A DNA stretch of 64,000 nt from a virus. Taxonomy: Duplodnaviria; Caudoviricetes. A model generated the notes under the pieces. The model saw nothing but the letters and a program-made list of their open reading frames with translations, searched no databases and was not told the DNA's origin. Location of the stretch: IMG/VR virus record IMGVR_UViG_3300020577_014401, positions 45,993 through 109,992 of that record. The stretch is one strand, 5' to 3'. Positions 15,006 to 20,997 of this stretch are shown piece by piece (positions within the stretch are counted from its first letter, which is position 1; every line of letters begins with the position of its first letter). The position numbers and the translations under genes are program-made.

Positions 15006-15596
15006 ATGTTTCAGCTCATCATGCGCTCCGGCTACGAGATGAAGATCGAGGGCTGCCCCAGTTACGGCCTCGAAGCCATCGATTTCAGAAGGCAGCACAA
15101 CCTGCCCGAAGAGCCGTCCAGCAAAATCAAACCGCCGTCCGGTGCGTTCCAAGACGAGAAGTTGGTTCGGCAGCTGCGAGCTGCCGGCGCCTACATCGAT
15201 ATGAGCGGCGACTGGGTGTTCGACGGGCAATCGATCATCGAGCTGCACGGCCGCGGTAACGGCGCTCACTCCAAGCATGGCCCGTGGCACTACGGATCGG
15301 CCCTGCCCGTCGAACCGGCGGCTATCAAGGCGTACATCGAAAACCCGTGCGCGGACACGCTCTTCGGTGTGGCCATGGCGATCTGCCAGCACAACGCCGA
15401 GCAGATGAAAATCATCGAAGCCGAGCAGCGCACTGTCGAAGAAGCGGCTCGCAGCAAGGAGGCGGCTCGGCTCTGTCTCAAGGACGAGATCGACAAGCTG
15501 GAGTCGAAGATCAACTACCTTCAGTCCGAGCTGCAGGAATCGAAGGAACGGATCGCTGAACTTGAAGACGAACTGGAGGCCCAGAAGGTCAGTTGA
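15006..15596 (+). CDS. Hypothetical protein with C-terminal coiled coil
   Basis: AAAGGA RBS; heptad-rich C-terminus. Confidence 0.7.
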   Translation: MFQLIMRSGYEMKIEGCPSYGLEAIDFRRQHNLPEEPSSKIKPPSGAFQDEKLVRQLRAAGAYIDMSGDWVFDGQSIIELHGRGNGAHSKHGPWHYGSALPVEPAAIKAYIENPCADTLFGVAMAICQHNAEQMKIIEAEQRTVEEAARSKEAARLCLKDEIDKLESKINYLQSELQESKERIAELEDELEAQKVS

Positions 15597-17307
15597 TCAG
15601 CCCGGCGATCGAGAACTCCGGCCACGATTGTGTCAGCGACCACAACCAGCTCGCGCCGAAATTGACGGCCGCGCTGAAGTCGTCGCAGACGGTCTTGCTC
15701 GACCTGCGAATGCGGAACGCGCTGCCCGACGGTGTGTCGACCTTGTCCTCCACCAAGGACAGGAAATCGTGCAGGTGGCCGGGCTCGTCGCGGCTCTTGT
15801 AGTCGTACTCGAAGAACCTCACCTTCCCGTACCGGACGGCCTGGCTCAACACCTGCAATGACTTCGACTTGTGGATGGAGTAGTACCCCAACCCCGAGCC
15901 GCTCGGCGGCTTGTGGTACACGGGTCGGGCCGGAACTCCGTCGACCCCGGAATAGAGCAAACGGGCGATCCGGTCGGGCGGCCACCCGCTGTGGATGAAC
16001 GCCGCTTCGGAGGCGGTCCCGATGCCGCCGCCGATGTCATGGGCGATGAACGACACGTTGCAGGCCTTGGCGATTCTCAGAATCTGATTGGCTTCTTCGA
16101 TGCGGTCGGTCGACGGCGGGAAGCCGAAGCCGTGAATGACTTCGGCGACCCCGTCGTTGGCCAGGCCGATCACGGCTCCCTTGGTGCGGCTCACTCCGTC
16201 GTCACCGCCGCCACCCCAGTCGACTCCCAGCACAACGACCTGGTAGTGCTTGGACCGCATGGAGGCGTTGGCCAGCGTGTTCGGGCCCAGCACCGCCGCT
16301 TTCTTCAAGTCTTCGATCGAGAACAATTTGACGGCGAGGTCGTACGCTTCGCCAAGGCACTCGTTGTAGAACTTGGCGGTCGAGTAACCGCCTTTGCCGG
16401 CCATGAACCCCAGCAGTTCCTTCCACTTGTTCGGAAGGGCGTAGTGGATGGGGAAGATCACCTGCGGGGCGTAGTACCCGGCGACGTCCCGAAGCCGCTC
16501 CGGGAAGCGGTGGACCCACCGGCCGAACCGCGGGTTGATCGGCTGCTTGGGCCCGCACCGCTTGCACACGGTCCCCGGGCGCTTTTCGGAGATGTCGTCC
16601 CGGTAAGGGCCGATCATCGCCAGGAGGTGGCCCTCGGGCTCGATGGCGCAAATGTTGTCGAATCCGCACGCCGGGCACTTGATCTGCCAGACGCCCTGGC
16701 TGGAGTCCTGCCACTCGCCTTCGAGGTACGTGTCCTTGGTCAGGCTGGTGCCGCTGATCCACAACTGCGGCTGTTTGGCGGCCCGTGTACATTGCTGGAT
16801 GGCCGGCAGGTCGCTCACGTCCATCGACTGGCCTTCGTCGACGTACAGGATCCTGCCGGTCTTGGAACGCAAACGAAGAGGATCTCCCTGGCAGTACGAG
16901 AAGTGGATCACACTGCCGTTGGTGAACGGACCCCGGATGCGGACGTTGCCGAGATTGGACGTTTCGCTGAGCAGGGTCCGGATGGGGCTGTTGTCGATCA
17001 TCGGACGGAACACGAGCGACGACAGGCCGTCCGACTGGCTTTGCAGCGGCGTGACGACGATGACTCGCGTCCCGTCGATGACCGCGCACTCGACGCACAT
17101 CCGGGCGGCGATCTGCCAGGTCTTTCCGATCTGGCGGCTGGAGCGGTGGACGATCCGGGGAGGCTGCCGGGCCGAGAACACGTCCTCGAACGGAAAGAAG
17201 TCGTCGAGCCGCATGGGCTGCCGACCGATTCCTTCGACATTGACCCGGATCAGGGCCGGAAGGATGTGGGCGAACGTGTCGATCCGGTTGTCAGGTTTGT
17301 AGCTCAA
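15589..17307 (-). CDS. terL: Phage terminase large subunit (GpA/lambda-like)
   Basis: Walker A SRQIGKT, Walker B LYVDEGQ, SGTSLT, CPACG/CKRCG Zn motifs, FYNECLGEAY, nuclease GVDWGGG, DDFSAA. Confidence 0.88.
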   Translation of the reverse strand: MSYKPDNRIDTFAHILPALIRVNVEGIGRQPMRLDDFFPFEDVFSARQPPRIVHRSSRQIGKTWQIAARMCVECAVIDGTRVIVVTPLQSQSDGLSSLVFRPMIDNSPIRTLLSETSNLGNVRIRGPFTNGSVIHFSYCQGDPLRLRSKTGRILYVDEGQSMDVSDLPAIQQCTRAAKQPQLWISGTSLTKDTYLEGEWQDSSQGVWQIKCPACGFDNICAIEPEGHLLAMIGPYRDDISEKRPGTVCKRCGPKQPINPRFGRWVHRFPERLRDVAGYYAPQVIFPIHYALPNKWKELLGFMAGKGGYSTAKFYNECLGEAYDLAVKLFSIEDLKKAAVLGPNTLANASMRSKHYQVVVLGVDWGGGGDDGVSRTKGAVIGLANDGVAEVIHGFGFPPSTDRIEEANQILRIAKACNVSFIAHDIGGGIGTASEAAFIHSGWPPDRIARLLYSGVDGVPARPVYHKPPSGSGLGYYSIHKSKSLQVLSQAVRYGKVRFFEYDYKSRDEPGHLHDFLSLVEDKVDTPSGSAFRIRRSSKTVCDDFSAAVNFGASWLWSLTQSWPEFSIAGLIN

Positions 17308-17334: not shown

Positions 17335-17586
17335 ATGTTTCCCGCAGTCGTTGAAACGATCGTGATCGGGCGCCGCGAGGCCGCCGACCTGCAACACGGA
17401 ATCACGCACAACCAGGCTTGGGGGATCACCGGAATGTCGGCCTGGATTGGCATCATGATCAGCGCCCAGACGGGCGAAGCGTTCCCGTTGCTGCTCCCCG
17501 CGGTCACGGTCCTGATGTTCTCCGGGCTGTCAAAGTTGTCGTCCAAGTATCGGGATCAGGACGGCAATGGTCCTCCGGGTGCTTGA
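17335..17586 (+). CDS. Small membrane protein (2 predicted TM segments)
   Basis: GAAAGGAA RBS; two hydrophobic stretches. Confidence 0.55.
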   Translation: MFPAVVETIVIGRREAADLQHGITHNQAWGITGMSAWIGIMISAQTGEAFPLLLPAVTVLMFSGLSKLSSKYRDQDGNGPPGA

Positions 17587-17654: not shown

Positions 17655-18104
17655 ATGTCCAGGAGTCGCTCCACCGTGAAGAAAAAGCAGTCCGTACGGC
17701 CGGGAGAACTCATCCCGGCCGTCACGCGGGTGCTCGAGCTGGTCACCCACCTCGAAGCCGACATCGTCAAACACGCCGACCCGAGGTGGGTCGCCAAGCA
17801 CGGTTCACGGCTGCGTCGAATCGAGGACGCGAACATCTACTTCTACCGCGACTCCGAAGAGGTCCGGAAGTACACGCGAATGCCCAAGGGCGACGACATT
17901 CCCTTCCACGAGGCCGCCGCGGCCTACCTTCAACTCTCCGCCACCTGTCTCAAGATCGCGATCGACTACGAAGCCGCCGCCGTCCGCGAGAACGAACTGT
18001 TCGCGAAGCTGATGCGGGACGGACCCGAGGAGAAGCCCCTCGTCCCCGTCACCGCCGGCGGTTCGGAAGACGAGGACGACGCGGTCGACGAAGACGACGA
18101 ATAA
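17655..18104 (+). CDS. Hypothetical protein, basic N-terminus and acidic tail
   Basis: ORF ending EDEDDAVDEDDE. Confidence 0.7.
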   Translation: MSRSRSTVKKKQSVRPGELIPAVTRVLELVTHLEADIVKHADPRWVAKHGSRLRRIEDANIYFYRDSEEVRKYTRMPKGDDIPFHEAAAAYLQLSATCLKIAIDYEAAAVRENELFAKLMRDGPEEKPLVPVTAGGSEDEDDAVDEDDE

Positions 18105-18189
18105 GCCCGTGCAGGGGCTGTTCAAACTGCAACTTGAAGAGAACATGGCCACCACTACGAGCCCGTGCAGGGGCTGTTTGAACTGCAAC
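18104..18189. repeat. Two 30-bp direct repeats (28/30 identical) separated by a 26-bp spacer; mini-CRISPR-like
   Basis: AGCCCGTGCAGGGGCTGTTCAAACTGCAAC (18104-18133) and AGCCCGTGCAGGGGCTGTTTGAACTGCAAC (18160-18189); internal AGCCC/GGGCT stem. Confidence 0.8.
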
Positions 18190-18190
18190 C

Positions 18191-18403
18191 CGAGCAAAAT
18201 AGGACTATTCCTCTCCTAATCCATGAACTAAGTGAGGAATGCCTCATTCTGACAATTGTTCATGAGTAGGGTGCTCGTTCCGTCATGTTGTATTCACAAC
18301 ATAGACGTCATCCTTCGGAGAATAGGATGACTGACGTCATCCTATTCTCCTCAGGAAAAATAAGAAACACGCCCGGCCGCTGCGCGGCCTCGGCGTGTTT
18401 CTT
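18191..18403. other. AT-richer hairpin cluster (candidate ncRNA or replication origin)
   Basis: Perfect 15-bp inverted repeat at 18317-18350, 12-bp IR at 18362-18403, nested stems at 18191-18277. Confidence 0.6.
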
Positions 18404-18405
18404 GG

Positions 18406-18432
18406 GGCGGGCCGCCAGCGGCCCGCCTTTTT
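18406..18432 (+). terminator. Rho-independent terminator
   Basis: GGCGGGCCGC-CA-GCGGCCCGCC followed by TTTTT. Confidence 0.75.
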
Positions 18433-18464
18433 CTCCACCAAACCGGAAGAGAGGTGCCACTACG

Positions 18465-18638
18465 TCCGAACTGACCGAAGGCGCGCTCAACGAGCACCAA
18501 GCGACGCCCGACCGTTCCGAATTGATCATCAGCGCGCCGAAGAAGAAGCGCACACGAACCGACCGTTCCGAACTGAAGAGCACCAAGCGCGCCGGAACAT
18601 TCTGTTCCAAGTCCGAATTGACCATCCGTCCCGAACTG
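18465..18638 (+). repeat. Degenerate tandem repeats with a TCCGAAYTGA core, about 51-bp period
   Basis: Core at 18465, 18516, 18567, 18612 (partial copy at 18630); spacing 51, 51, 45, 18. Confidence 0.65.
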
Positions 18639-18683
18639 TTGCCTCCGAAGTGGCCGAAGTACGTATCCAAGGCTGTGGTTCCG

Positions 18684-19574
18684 ATGCGCAAGAGCAACGG
18701 TGCGGGCGCATGGTTGGCACGCCAGATTGTTGCACACACTTACACGCAAAAGGCTTACGGCAATAAGGTCAATTTCGACTTGCTTAACGACGATGAGAAG
18801 TTCGCCTGCGCCGCGTCGATGTGGACCAGGGCCGTTTCCGTCATGCAGTACAACGGCACGGGCTGTGGCTCCTCCGCCAAGGCGGAGCGGATGGCGCGGC
18901 GCATGTACGGGTGCTATGCGCCCGGGTACAAGTTCGGTTCGCTCTGGCATGAACGCCCGACGTGGGACCTGTGCAAGCACGAACTCTGTCCGTACTGCTA
19001 CGCCCGTCGCGTGGTCAACATGTTCAAGGATCTCGCCAACGCGTTCAAGAATCGCCCCGAAGGCTCTGAGATCTGGATCTCGGCGTTCTACACCTTCGAC
19101 AATCGGAAGGAGTTCGCGAAGAAGCTCTGCAAGATCCGGCCGGCCTGCGCGGCGGCTTTTTACCTTCCGACCGGTCAGACCGACGGCGACGACGGCTGGA
19201 AGATCCACGGCGTGATGATGACCGACGACCCGGAGAAGTTCCGGACTCGAAAGTACAAGCGACGCATCTACAATTCGAATCAGATCGCCAGGGCGCTGGC
19301 GATGTGGATGCGTTACCCGCGGCCGTGGTATGCGAGGGGAGCGGTCAAGACCGCTCAGCTCATGGCCCATGTGTTCGCGTCGCTTCCCGACGGCAAGCAT
19401 CGTTACTCGACGTTCGGCGCGGCCCGAGCCGATTGCCGTCCCGGTTGCTCGTTCATGGACTGGAAGGCGTATGACGCGGGTGTGCCGCAGGATGTGATCG
19501 AGAAGTGGGAGCGCAAACGGGCGGATATCCGGCTATCAACTGGTACTCATCAACAGGAGTCGCATGAGGCGTAA
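18684..19574 (+). CDS. Divergent rolling-circle replication initiator homolog (Rep_1, pC194/pUB110-like) with degenerate HUH motif
   Basis: KAERM..GC, CKHELCPYCYARR, WKIHGVMM, MRYP and KHRYSTFG lie in the same order as Rep_1 motifs. The frame is open from 18285, so the start is uncertain. Confidence 0.6.
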   Translation: MRKSNGAGAWLARQIVAHTYTQKAYGNKVNFDLLNDDEKFACAASMWTRAVSVMQYNGTGCGSSAKAERMARRMYGCYAPGYKFGSLWHERPTWDLCKHELCPYCYARRVVNMFKDLANAFKNRPEGSEIWISAFYTFDNRKEFAKKLCKIRPACAAAFYLPTGQTDGDDGWKIHGVMMTDDPEKFRTRKYKRRIYNSNQIARALAMWMRYPRPWYARGAVKTAQLMAHVFASLPDGKHRYSTFGAARADCRPGCSFMDWKAYDAGVPQDVIEKWERKRADIRLSTGTHQQESHEA

Positions 19575-20997
19575 ACCGCATGTCTGGGTCGTCGGGGACT
19601 CGATGCTGGACATTTCCGTCCGTGCCGAGCAGTTCCCTCGAACTCCGGAAGACAGAACCGTGCCGGTTCTCCCGGCATACGATCTCGAAGCCCACGAGGT
19701 CCAGCCCGGTGGTGCCGCCAACGTCGCTGCCAATCTGTCCGCGATGGGGTGTGACACGATCTTGTACAGCCGATTCGGAAGAGACAAGGCTTCGACCAGG
19801 TTGATCGGCGACCTCGATGCCGCCTATGGCGTCGACTTCGGTCTGGTGAAGGAGCATCGTGACGGACATGCCACCGTCAAGACTCGGTACTACGAAGATG
19901 ACCGGCTGATCGCCCGCCACGATTCCAATTTTGATCAGCCTCCGATCAGCCACCAGTTCAAGGATGATGAGCCTTCGCCCGACGCTGTCGTGCTCACCGA
20001 TTACGGACGTGGCGTGATCGACGAGCAGTCCTTGAGGTCCTGGGTTTCCGCTTGCCGCGACCGCGGTGTTCCGCTGTTCGGGGACCCGAAGTTGGGTCGT
20101 ACGGCGATGTGGAGGAGCCACCCCGGTGTGATCATGGTCGCCAACTTCAAGGAAGCTCGGGAACTGGTGGCCGACCCCGGCAAGGGATTGTGCTTCGGTC
20201 GTGACGACGCCATGCGGATGGCGATGAAGCTCGCATTGGACTTCCCACGGTGCGTGGTCAAGTGTGGTCCGTTCGGGTCGGCGTACTGCGATCTCGACGG
20301 TTTTGGGAGGACGCCCGCTTACGGACCTCTGGCGGTGTTCGACGTGCAAGGTGCGGGCGACACATACTTGGCTGGTCTGGTGACGGCGATGTGCGGCGGC
20401 GCCAGCCTGGAGTTGGCGTGCAACTTCGCATCGGCTGCGGCGGGCGCGGCCGTCGGTGTCCGTGGGACCGCGGTGATCGACCGGAAAACTGTGCTGGACA
20501 CGATTCGCAAGTCGATCGTCGAGCCGACGGGGGCTTGTGCTTACGACGACGCGATCGCCAGTGCTCGAATTCGTCGGATGTACGGGCACAGCATCGGCCT
20601 GGTCAACGGATGCTTCGACCTGCTGCTTCCGCATCCGGGTCATCTGGCCCTGATCTCCGAGGCCGCCAAGAAGTGCGACTACCTGTATGTCGGCATCGAC
20701 TCCGACCGACGCGTTGCTGTGTTGAAGGGCGACGGCAGGCCGAGAACTCCGGAACAGGACCGGCTCGCCGCTGTCGCCGCTCTTCGTGGTGTCGATACGG
20801 CGTTCATCTTCGACACCCCGATCGAGAAGGTGGTTTCCGACTTGAAGCCGGATGTGATCGTCAAGGGATCCGATTACCGGGACAAGGGCGTTCCGGAAGC
20901 TGTTCTTCTTGACGAGTGGTCCGGTCGATTGGAGTTCGTCGAATTGGTTCCGACCAAGTCGACCACTCTCCGAATCGCGGAGATCGATGGTGAATGA
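19564..20997 (+). CDS. hldE: Bifunctional heptose-7-phosphate kinase / heptose-1-phosphate adenylyltransferase (ADP-heptose synthase)
   Basis: VVGDSMLD, PGGAANVAANL, TVKTRY, DVQGAGDT (PfkB domain); NGCFDLL.HPGH, DSDRRV..LKG..RP, PDVIVKGSDY. Confidence 0.92.
   Translation: MRRKPHVWVVGDSMLDISVRAEQFPRTPEDRTVPVLPAYDLEAHEVQPGGAANVAANLSAMGCDTILYSRFGRDKASTRLIGDLDAAYGVDFGLVKEHRDGHATVKTRYYEDDRLIARHDSNFDQPPISHQFKDDEPSPDAVVLTDYGRGVIDEQSLRSWVSACRDRGVPLFGDPKLGRTAMWRSHPGVIMVANFKEARELVADPGKGLCFGRDDAMRMAMKLALDFPRCVVKCGPFGSAYCDLDGFGRTPAYGPLAVFDVQGAGDTYLAGLVTAMCGGASLELACNFASAAAGAAVGVRGTAVIDRKTVLDTIRKSIVEPTGACAYDDAIASARIRRMYGHSIGLVNGCFDLLLPHPGHLALISEAAKKCDYLYVGIDSDRRVAVLKGDGRPRTPEQDRLAAVAALRGVDTAFIFDTPIEKVVSDLKPDVIVKGSDYRDKGVPEAVLLDEWSGRLEFVELVPTKSTTLRIAEIDGE

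Follow-up and report, generated by a model that had tools for sequence, protein, structure and literature searches.

The window analysed here is a stretch of 64,000 nucleotides (nt) of phage DNA, corresponding to bases 45993-109992 of one 109,992-bp IMG/VR virus record (IMGVR_UViG_3300020577_014401, CheckV completeness 56%). It contains an open reading frame (ORF) of 429 codons at 18285-19574 on the plus strand, which a first-pass annotation had regarded as a degenerate replication initiator (Rep). We have found that this Rep-like protein belongs to an unnamed phage family of about 300 amino acids (aa) which, judging from predicted structures, descends from the Rep_1-type (pC194/pUB110) rolling-circle initiators, with a kinship that is seen at the level of the fold. 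Tentatively, we propose that it is an exapted, probably non-nicking, sequence-specific nucleic-acid binder, most likely an origin-recognition or initiator protein whose expression would be gated by a leader, a reading that we regard as plausible if somewhat short of probable.

A phage protein family with a Rep_1-like fold

Searching 1.84 billion cluster representatives exhaustively with HMMER, we retrieved 27 relatives, most of them 280-340 aa long, and no member of the family has a significant Pfam, PHROG or NCBIfam assignment. Against PDB sequences, neither phmmer nor the family profile reached an E-value lower than 0.4; a tblastn search of 50,697 phage records was negative too, and the profile search of metagenome contigs returned no relative, that of viral contigs one locus and that of genome contigs another one. 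Longer (fused) forms of 735-2095 aa were also searched and none was found, which is weak evidence. The conserved core, delimited by the family alignment, an AlphaFold2 (AF2) model and the fold matches, comprises 322 aa (18606-19574, plus strand, with the stop codon at 19572-19574). Its predicted layout consists of an N-terminal helical part with the conserved features LPxxWxxFP and DERW, a Cys4 zinc ribbon, and a ferredoxin-like Rep core. The ribbon, C-x19-C-x4-C-P-x-C-x-A-R (18912-18998, plus strand), has its cysteines at core residues 103, 123, 128, and 131, all of them invariant or nearly invariant columns. The family also shares RPxG, RPA on one strand, W-x-x-R-G-V-x-x-T-D on the next strand, RWLRYPxxW, and a C-terminal GACRxDxxPG, together with several invariant arginines.

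The motifs quoted in the first-pass annotation (CKHELCPYCYARR, WKIHGVMM, MRYP, and HRYSTFG) are indeed present in the ORF and collinear with those of pC194 RepA and pUB110 RepU, in which C-x22-C-x4-C-P-x-C-x-W-R (C56-x22-C79-x4-C84-x2-C87 in the Rep_1 numbering), FLTLT, H-x-H-V-L and E-x-A-K-Y-P follow one another in the order of the phage motifs. The AF2 model of the core (predicted local distance difference test score 87, predicted template modelling score 0.85) arranges the zinc ribbon, a long helix, beta-1, a helix, beta-2, beta-3, beta-4, the helix with the tyrosine, another helix and beta-5, and the core order is the same in the model of a pUB110-type Rep, except for one helix that is absent in the phage protein. 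An HUH-type ferredoxin-like beta-alpha-beta-beta-alpha-beta core, as in known Rep proteins, is predicted by the models, so that the fold supposed for this protein is borne out by prediction.

A Foldseek search of the model against predicted viral structures (BFVD) gave three matches with E ~2.5e-5 and probability 1.0, with Microvirus replication initiators and ORF2/G2P Rep proteins appearing lower in the list. To test this transitively, we searched the same library with the model of a true Rep_1 protein (the RepU-like P0035). Both models recovered A0A894JTM0 (E 2.6e-5 for the Rep-like protein and 5.5e-18 for the Rep_1 model) and A0A345MR61 (2.4e-5 and 7.3e-9, respectively), as well as A0A345MT64, A0A345MWV7, A0A345MR44, and the Microvirus mar14 replication initiator. 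All the named neighbours in the ESM Atlas carry Rep_1. At the profile level, Pfam Rep_1 (PF01446) gave weak matches in four of the 29 family members (best E 0.0029; the window protein had no match), and hhalign placed the stretch from the zinc ribbon through beta-1 in register with Rep_1 (P 0.0034). A search of PDB found no solved Rep_1 structure for comparison. Fold matches, ESM neighbours and weak profile matches all point to Rep_1, in agreement with the degenerate homology that had been suggested.

Catalytic residues lost and kept

Judged by its residues, the family is not Rep_1 or an HUH enzyme by the criteria of membership, though descended from one, because the HUH histidines and both catalytic glutamates are lost and no Pfam match lies above the cut-off. 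At the HUH-motif position on strand beta-3 (19197-19226, plus strand) the window reads WKIHGVMMTD and the family W-x-x-R-G-V-x-x-T-D, without a His pair, in place of the H-x-H-V-L of Rep_1. The histidine of WKIHG, taken earlier as the remaining one of the pair, is confined to the clade of the window, and both HUH histidines are absent family-wide. The Glu of beta-2 in Rep_1 (R-x-x-E) is A, C or G in the family (R-P-A), and the one located four residues before the Tyr (E-x-x-K-Y-P) is R or M; from pC194 mutagenesis, we take the two catalytic glutamates to be Glu142 and Glu210. Motif I of Rep_1 (FLTLT) is not conserved either. Weak profile matches were obtained in Gemmataceae genomes for four more distant relatives (L025-L028), which belong to no Pfam family, show no His pair and were rejected as a bridge to canonical Rep_1.

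The other part of the earlier proposal, that the position of the catalytic Tyr is kept, has held. Tyr237-Pro238 in RWLRYPxxW (19314-19319, plus strand) stands at the position of the catalytic Tyr of Rep_1 (ETAKYP in pUB110), the Tyr being found in 28 of 29 family sequences and the Pro in all; within a pUB110-like set K240-Y241 is invariant and P242 nearly so. Also conserved is the acidic residue that ends beta-3 (T-D), whose Rep_1 equivalent is V-E. P2 gpA and phiX174 gpA are nicking initiators, and an active enzyme of this replication type would be another explanation for these residues: Tyr237 would cut one strand at an upstream hairpin for a sigma or rolling-circle start, the part of the His/Glu metal site being taken over by conserved arginines or by the Asp that closes beta-3. 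The Tyr-Pro pair, the acidic residue and the invariant arginines would all suit such an enzyme, and so would the hairpin cluster followed by short direct repeats by the gene, an arrangement resembling a double-strand origin with nick and bind loci (PMC5714925). We nevertheless consider active nicking rather unlikely, given that four of the five catalytic or metal positions of Rep_1 (the two His and the two Glu) are lost in every member, including the remote Gemmataceae relatives, that the hairpin loops show no obvious conserved, unpaired sequence suited as a nick site, and that the G-U pairs and the T-run described below favour an RNA reading of the hairpins.

Start of the gene and periodic repeats

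To place the start of the protein, three close homologues (66-94% identical) and a copy in a Gemmataceae metagenome-assembled genome (85%) were compared at the DNA level. Codons 1 to ~55 of the ORF (18285 to ~18450) cross four hairpins, and in two of the homologous loci (L002 and L014) their frame differs from that of the main ORF, so this part is read as leader and not as protein; for the same reasons we discarded the idea that a long N-terminal extension begins at ATG 18285 or 18327. On the other side, the motif IRPELLPPKWPKYV, located upstream of the internal Met 18684, is kept even in distant relatives, which implies that the protein starts further upstream than 18684. Between these limits there is a ribosome-binding box, AAACCGGAAGAGAGGTG (18440-18456, plus strand), kept in L001, L008, L002, L003, and L014, and conserved in the form AAACCGGAAGAG(A)GGTG down to L008, the protein of which is 45% identical. 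The codon after the box is ATG in L001 and GTG (9923) in L008. The window, L002, L003, and L014 have ACT ACG at this point, with no ATG, GTG or TTG after the box; the ACG of the window (18462), 5 nt past the box and 7 nt past its GAGAGG core, occupies the position of the L001 ATG and the L008 GTG, and the first in-frame TTG behind the box is found at 18519. Translation in the window may start at the non-canonical ACG 18462 or at TTG 18519.

The 5' part of the coding region (18462-18640, plus strand) evolves fast and contains five copies of GTTCCGAAYTG, each read as (R/T/K)(S/P)EL, at 18463, 18514, 18565, 18610, and 18628 (spacings of 51, 51, 45, and 18). Only one other copy, allowing for up to one mismatch, exists elsewhere in the 64 kb, and the core hexamer TCCGAA was observed five times against 0.29 expected. 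There is an analogous cluster of ACCGGAA in L008 (four observed, 0.11 expected), which includes a perfect 15-nt inverted copy of the ribosome-binding box of that locus. The first-pass annotation had direct repeats, hairpins and periodic repeats all preceding the gene; the first two are upstream, but the periodic repeats fall within the 5' coding region.

A four-hairpin leader and an upstream box

The leader (18281-18432, plus strand) consists of four stem-loops, H1 (18281-18307), H2 (18311-18356), H3 (18361-18404), and H4 (18405-18428), followed by a run of five T (T5, 18428-18432). The sequence 18281-18428 has a minimum free energy of -110 kcal/mol (z -10.5), and none of 200 shuffles folded as well. 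H4 is a GC-rich 10-bp stem that, with T5, ends 8 nt before the ribosome-binding box, leaving no room for a further promoter in between; as a GC-rich stem with a U-run upstream of a gene, it looks like a predicted intrinsic terminator. A simple terminator scan missed it, since the scan wants five T in a window that starts after the stem, and flagged the inner stem of H3 instead. The U-run after H4 is weak in L008. Two palindromes, GGCCGC-N3-GCGGCC (18375-18389) and GGCCGCCAGCGGCC (18410-18423), are invariant even in L008 and sit within stems that otherwise covary: in the fold of a six-locus alignment, 15 of 48 pairs show compensatory change. G-U pairs outnumber A-C in this alignment 12 to 6, an excess that mildly favours, on comparative grounds, a reading of the hairpins as plus-strand RNA.

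Hairpins are a persistent feature of the gene, as the earlier proposal had anticipated. L008, L009, and L010 share little sequence with the window, yet in each of them the start is preceded by four strong stem-loops (z -11.2, -8.5, and -9.5, respectively), and the cluster is thus kept at 38-45% protein identity, although the palindromic cores are not recognisable in L009 or L010. At L013 the gene is present and no hairpin leader was found upstream. Rfam gave nothing near threshold on the locus. Further upstream, in an AT-richer stretch, lies the box ACTAAGTG ... CTGACAATTG (18226-18258, plus strand), kept by inspection in the window, L001, L002, L014, and L008. A scan with the sigma-70 consensus does not call it; for the rightward operon it could serve as promoter or operator. 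The box and the leader elements are each unique in the 110 kb.

Such a leader could be the target of its own product. The Rep-like protein might be a regulator of the early or replication operon that binds the leader palindromes, either as DNA operators or as RNA stems, and sets read-through of the terminator, with no direct role at the origin. The invariant GGCCGC...GCGGCC cores, a terminator-like stem directly before the ribosome-binding box, the place of the gene at the head of the operon and the uniqueness of the leader elements are all in line with it, and in the repC leader of pT181 attenuation control is found just upstream of the start. We consider such a purely regulatory role quite unlikely, because the cores are lost from view in L009 and L010 though the hairpins persist, L013 has the gene without any leader, and we know of no regulator of this fold.

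Proposed role in origin recognition

The role that we favour, tentatively, is origin recognition. The phage has a DnaB-like helicase, a primase and a polymerase but no recognisable initiator, which fits a protein that would recognise the origin of a ~100-200 kb phage and leave the rest to the phage's own DnaB-like helicase, primase and PolA. Its candidate binding sites would be in its own 5' region, namely the GGCCGC...GCGGCC palindromes and the GTTCCGAAYTG repeats. Transcription would run from the conserved upstream box through the four-hairpin leader, and the terminator-like last stem with T5, sitting as it does 8 nt before the ribosome-binding box, would gate the gene and the replication operon behind it by read-through. 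DNA binding, the origin role and attenuation are all inferred. Our model for this is the Papovaviricetes, in which the origin is recognised by an HUH domain that has been inactivated (PMC13595969). The origins used by Rep proteins have both a bind site and a nick site (PMC5714925).

Several observations weigh against this proposal. With regard to the ancestry of the protein, the similarity to the Rep_1 profile is not significant beyond 40 columns (hhalign probability 9%), and Foldseek against PDB gave nothing at E <= 0.001, with pMV158 RepB and WDV Rep at a probability of 0.16-0.21. A nearly invariant Tyr is unexpected in a purely inactivated domain. The repeated 11-mer GTTCCGAAYTG may be a peptide repeat as well as a set of iterons, since all its copies share one codon phase and encode RSEL-like peptides where the protein sequence changes rapidly, and it was not seen in L009, L010, or L013. 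A role of the hairpins at the DNA level, as cruciform or single-stranded DNA (ssDNA), is conceivable because most of their pairs are Watson-Crick. The cumulative GC-skew has a broad minimum (window ~2-18 kb) that pinpoints no origin. Finally, in L001, L002, L003, and L014 the small acidic-protein gene that adjoins the Rep-like gene and the Rep-like gene itself form a module that lies away from replication genes.

Gene neighbourhood and distribution

The Rep-like gene heads a run of replication genes, as had been claimed and as the Pfam assignments of its surroundings confirm. The ATG of hldE (19564) and the stop codon of the Rep-like gene (19572-19574) overlap by 11 nt, and HldE (19564-20997, plus strand) is followed on the same strand by SbcD, SbcC, a ResIII helicase, a DnaB-like helicase, a DnaG-like primase, and a PolA that carries UDG and exonuclease domains. 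A copy of the dispersed palindrome ATATCCGGCTAT is located at the 3' end of the Rep-like gene (19521-19536), some 30 nt before the start of hldE. On the other side, the large terminase TerL (GpA_ATPase, 15589-17307, minus strand, identified with Pfam) is divergently oriented to the Rep-like ORF, and between them there are a small membrane-protein gene (17336-17586), read by eye and resembling L008 8832-9053, and the small acidic-protein gene (17655-18104, plus strand, 149 aa). The latter and the Rep-like gene are neighbours in the window, L001, L002, L014, and L008, also in loci with a different outer context, and Pfam, PHROGs and NCBIfam assign the small protein to no family. The part kept in every locus is the C-terminal 74 aa (from ATG 17880 in the window): the window and L008 have the full-length protein of 134-149 aa, which is cut to 74-76 C-terminal aa in L001 (1457-1687), L002 (5271-5495), and L014 (4996-5220). 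In L001 a 2-nt deletion breaks the longer frame.

The arrangement of the window, with terminase, small genes, Rep-like gene, HldE, DUF5662, SbcD, SbcC, and helicase, recurs in L008 (45% identical, in a 104-kb contig) and L009 (38%), and in L013, a 195-kb IMG/VR phage with a protein only 24% identical, HldE is two genes downstream. The module of L001, L002, L003, and L014 is found among glycosyltransferase, DUF5131, helix-turn-helix or Cas6 genes. The lineage of L014 and L002 has two DUF5131 genes downstream and, before the module (L014 10-4119, L002 3-4382), a giant protein of 1370-1459 aa with TPR repeats, a methyltransferase and GT4 and GT2 glycosyltransferase domains. In the structural region of the phage itself (L005 4492-8253), a 1253-aa ORF contains an intein with a LAGLIDADG homing-endonuclease domain (Hint, Intein_splicing, LAGLIDADG_3).

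Strong matches appeared in two of the 201 Gemmataceae genomes sampled, and the host is probably a member of this planctomycete family. The locus is present letter for letter in river, digester and other metagenome contigs from several studies, and identical, without variants, in contigs of four sequencing runs; there was no RNA run among the listed sequencing runs with the locus.

CRISPR-type repeats beside the gene

Immediately behind the small acidic-protein gene, the stop codon of which abuts the first repeat, there is a mini-array of the CRISPR type (short palindromic repeats that are clustered and regularly interspaced; 18104-18189, plus strand), with two 30-nt repeats (18104-18133 and 18160-18189) that are 93% alike, where none was expected from shuffles, and a spacer of ~20-26 nt. 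These direct repeats are CRISPR-type. They are variants of the 36-nt repeat of an 18-repeat CRISPR array with which the contig opens, 46 kb upstream of the window (genome G000, 1-1248; locus L005), with unique spacers of 33-40 nt and degenerate last repeats. L001 has an orthologous mini-array of two repeats, L002 one of three, and L014 one of six, with irregular spacers of 19-48 nt, and the repeat forms a 4-5-bp stem around a G(T/C)GCAG loop with four compensatory variants across the loci. Rfam gave no CRISPR-DR match on the array, no cas gene was found in the 110 kb of this record (56% complete), and none of the 201 Gemmataceae genomes searched has a host array with this repeat. Cas6 was found only in L001 among the loci (509-1225, PF09559), divergent from the module.

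One spacer of the 18-repeat array (genome 310-346) agrees with the same strand of the window (18432-18468) in 33 of 37 positions, the mismatches falling on spacer positions 1, 2, 10, and 25; the target spans the ribosome-binding box and is also present in L002, L003, and L014. This could be near-self-targeting or inter-phage targeting of a conserved site. Another spacer (234-273) matches the RVT_1 gene of the related element L003 (35/38). Among the sequences compared, the mini-array spacers have no convincing target. The window spacer 18134-18153 is complementary in 14 of 14 positions to hairpin 1 of L014 (5666-5679), that is, to phages of the L014/L002 type, with E 0.006 in ~190 kb, which is marginal after nine spacers tested. 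In L001 an extra CRISPR repeat followed by a spacer-like copy of the box (2178-2239) is inserted between the leader terminator and the ribosome-binding box, and it looks as if a spacer and a protospacer had recombined there, or as if Cas6 had been given a processing site on the mRNA.

The first-pass annotation had also suggested an HUH protein paired with a structured, spacer-containing RNA, and this has not survived the comparison, the repeats being CRISPR-type and restricted to the close clade (window, L001, L002, and L014). A guide-dependent HUH protein working with the adjacent repeat RNAs, or a factor acting on transcripts resembling CRISPR RNA (crRNA), would account for a mini-array directly upstream of the gene in these four loci, for the Cas6 gene and the inserted repeat of L001, and for the spacer against the ribosome-binding box. 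We find it scarcely probable at all: the homologues in L008, L009, L010, and L013 have no mini-array upstream, yet the gene persists there (and the hairpins too, except in L013), repeat number (2-6) and spacer length vary freely, and the spacer matches are more simply explained by inter-phage targeting of a conserved gene. Because those four loci are without such repeats, the mini-array seems to have been inserted, in one lineage, between the small gene and the conserved box upstream of the leader, and does not look like a partner of the Rep-like protein. An improbable but wider possibility is that the family is a new HUH-derived tyrosine enzyme, with arginines replacing the His/Glu metal site, which would cut its own hairpins and launch the concatemer-forming replication of a 100-200 kb planctomycete phage; the locus would be indispensable, and rival phages would for this reason aim CRISPR spacers and crRNA-like mini-array RNAs at the leader and ribosome-binding box.

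Comparison with known systems and significance

The phage protein has in common with Rep_1 (PF01446, pC194/pUB110) the Cys4 zinc ribbon with the C-P-x-C-x-x-R signature and equal spacing (x19 in the phage and x22 in Rep_1 for the first gap), the succession of helix, beta-1, alpha, beta-2, beta-3, beta-4, (K/R)-Y-P helix and beta-5 ending in G, and the shared BFVD neighbours. It differs in having no HUH pair, no catalytic Glu, no conserved FLTLT and no Pfam match above the cut-off, and in being encoded in a tailed phage of 100-200 kb with its own replisome instead of a small plasmid. The origin-binding domain of polyomavirus large T and papillomavirus E1 is, like the phage protein, HUH-derived, devoid of a catalytic metal site and encoded by a virus with double-stranded DNA (dsDNA) (PMC13595969), and the role that we propose for the phage protein, origin recognition and not nicking, would be shared as well. 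Lineage and host are nevertheless unrelated, and the phage protein stands alone, without fusion to a superfamily 3 (SF3) helicase, keeps the Tyr and has a zinc ribbon. The initiators of Microviridae (VP4/phiX174 gpA-type) and inoviruses (gpII-type) are among its named BFVD neighbours (Microvirus initiators, ORF2/G2P-domain, Inovirus Gp2), but these are active HUH enzymes of ssDNA phages and the likeness is at the level of the fold only (TM 0.2-0.38).

With respect to the repeats, viral CRISPR mini-arrays, solitary repeat units and regulatory RNAs of the crRNA-like kind (Racr/Cracr) are likewise short and degenerate, mimic CRISPR repeats (PMC10651486; bioRxiv 10.1101/2024.10.29.618823), have irregular, often short spacers and are encoded in phages, here beside a small acidic-protein gene; a point of difference is that for the mini-array of the window neither a cognate host array in the 201 Gemmataceae genomes searched nor a cas gene in the 110 kb was found. 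Attenuator leaders of the pT181 repC type also have a terminator-like stem immediately upstream of the rep ribosome-binding site. They differ from the phage leader, which is made of four near-perfect stems and is not a switch, with no antisense RNA or alternative pairing identified.

The locus offers a compact natural case of CRISPR use between phages, with the 18-repeat array, a spacer against the ribosome-binding box, covarying mini-arrays and a repeat inserted in one relative. If origin recognition is indeed the function of the Rep-like protein, tailed dsDNA phages with a complete replisome would have recruited a plasmid-type rolling-circle initiator, removed its nuclease centre and retained it among their core genes, in front of the replication operon. 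Bacterial viruses would then offer a counterpart to the origin-binding domain of papilloma- and polyomaviruses, an inactivated HUH domain. Such a result would also give a name to a family annotated by no database at present, and provide a candidate origin and initiator for the poorly known large phages of planctomycetes.

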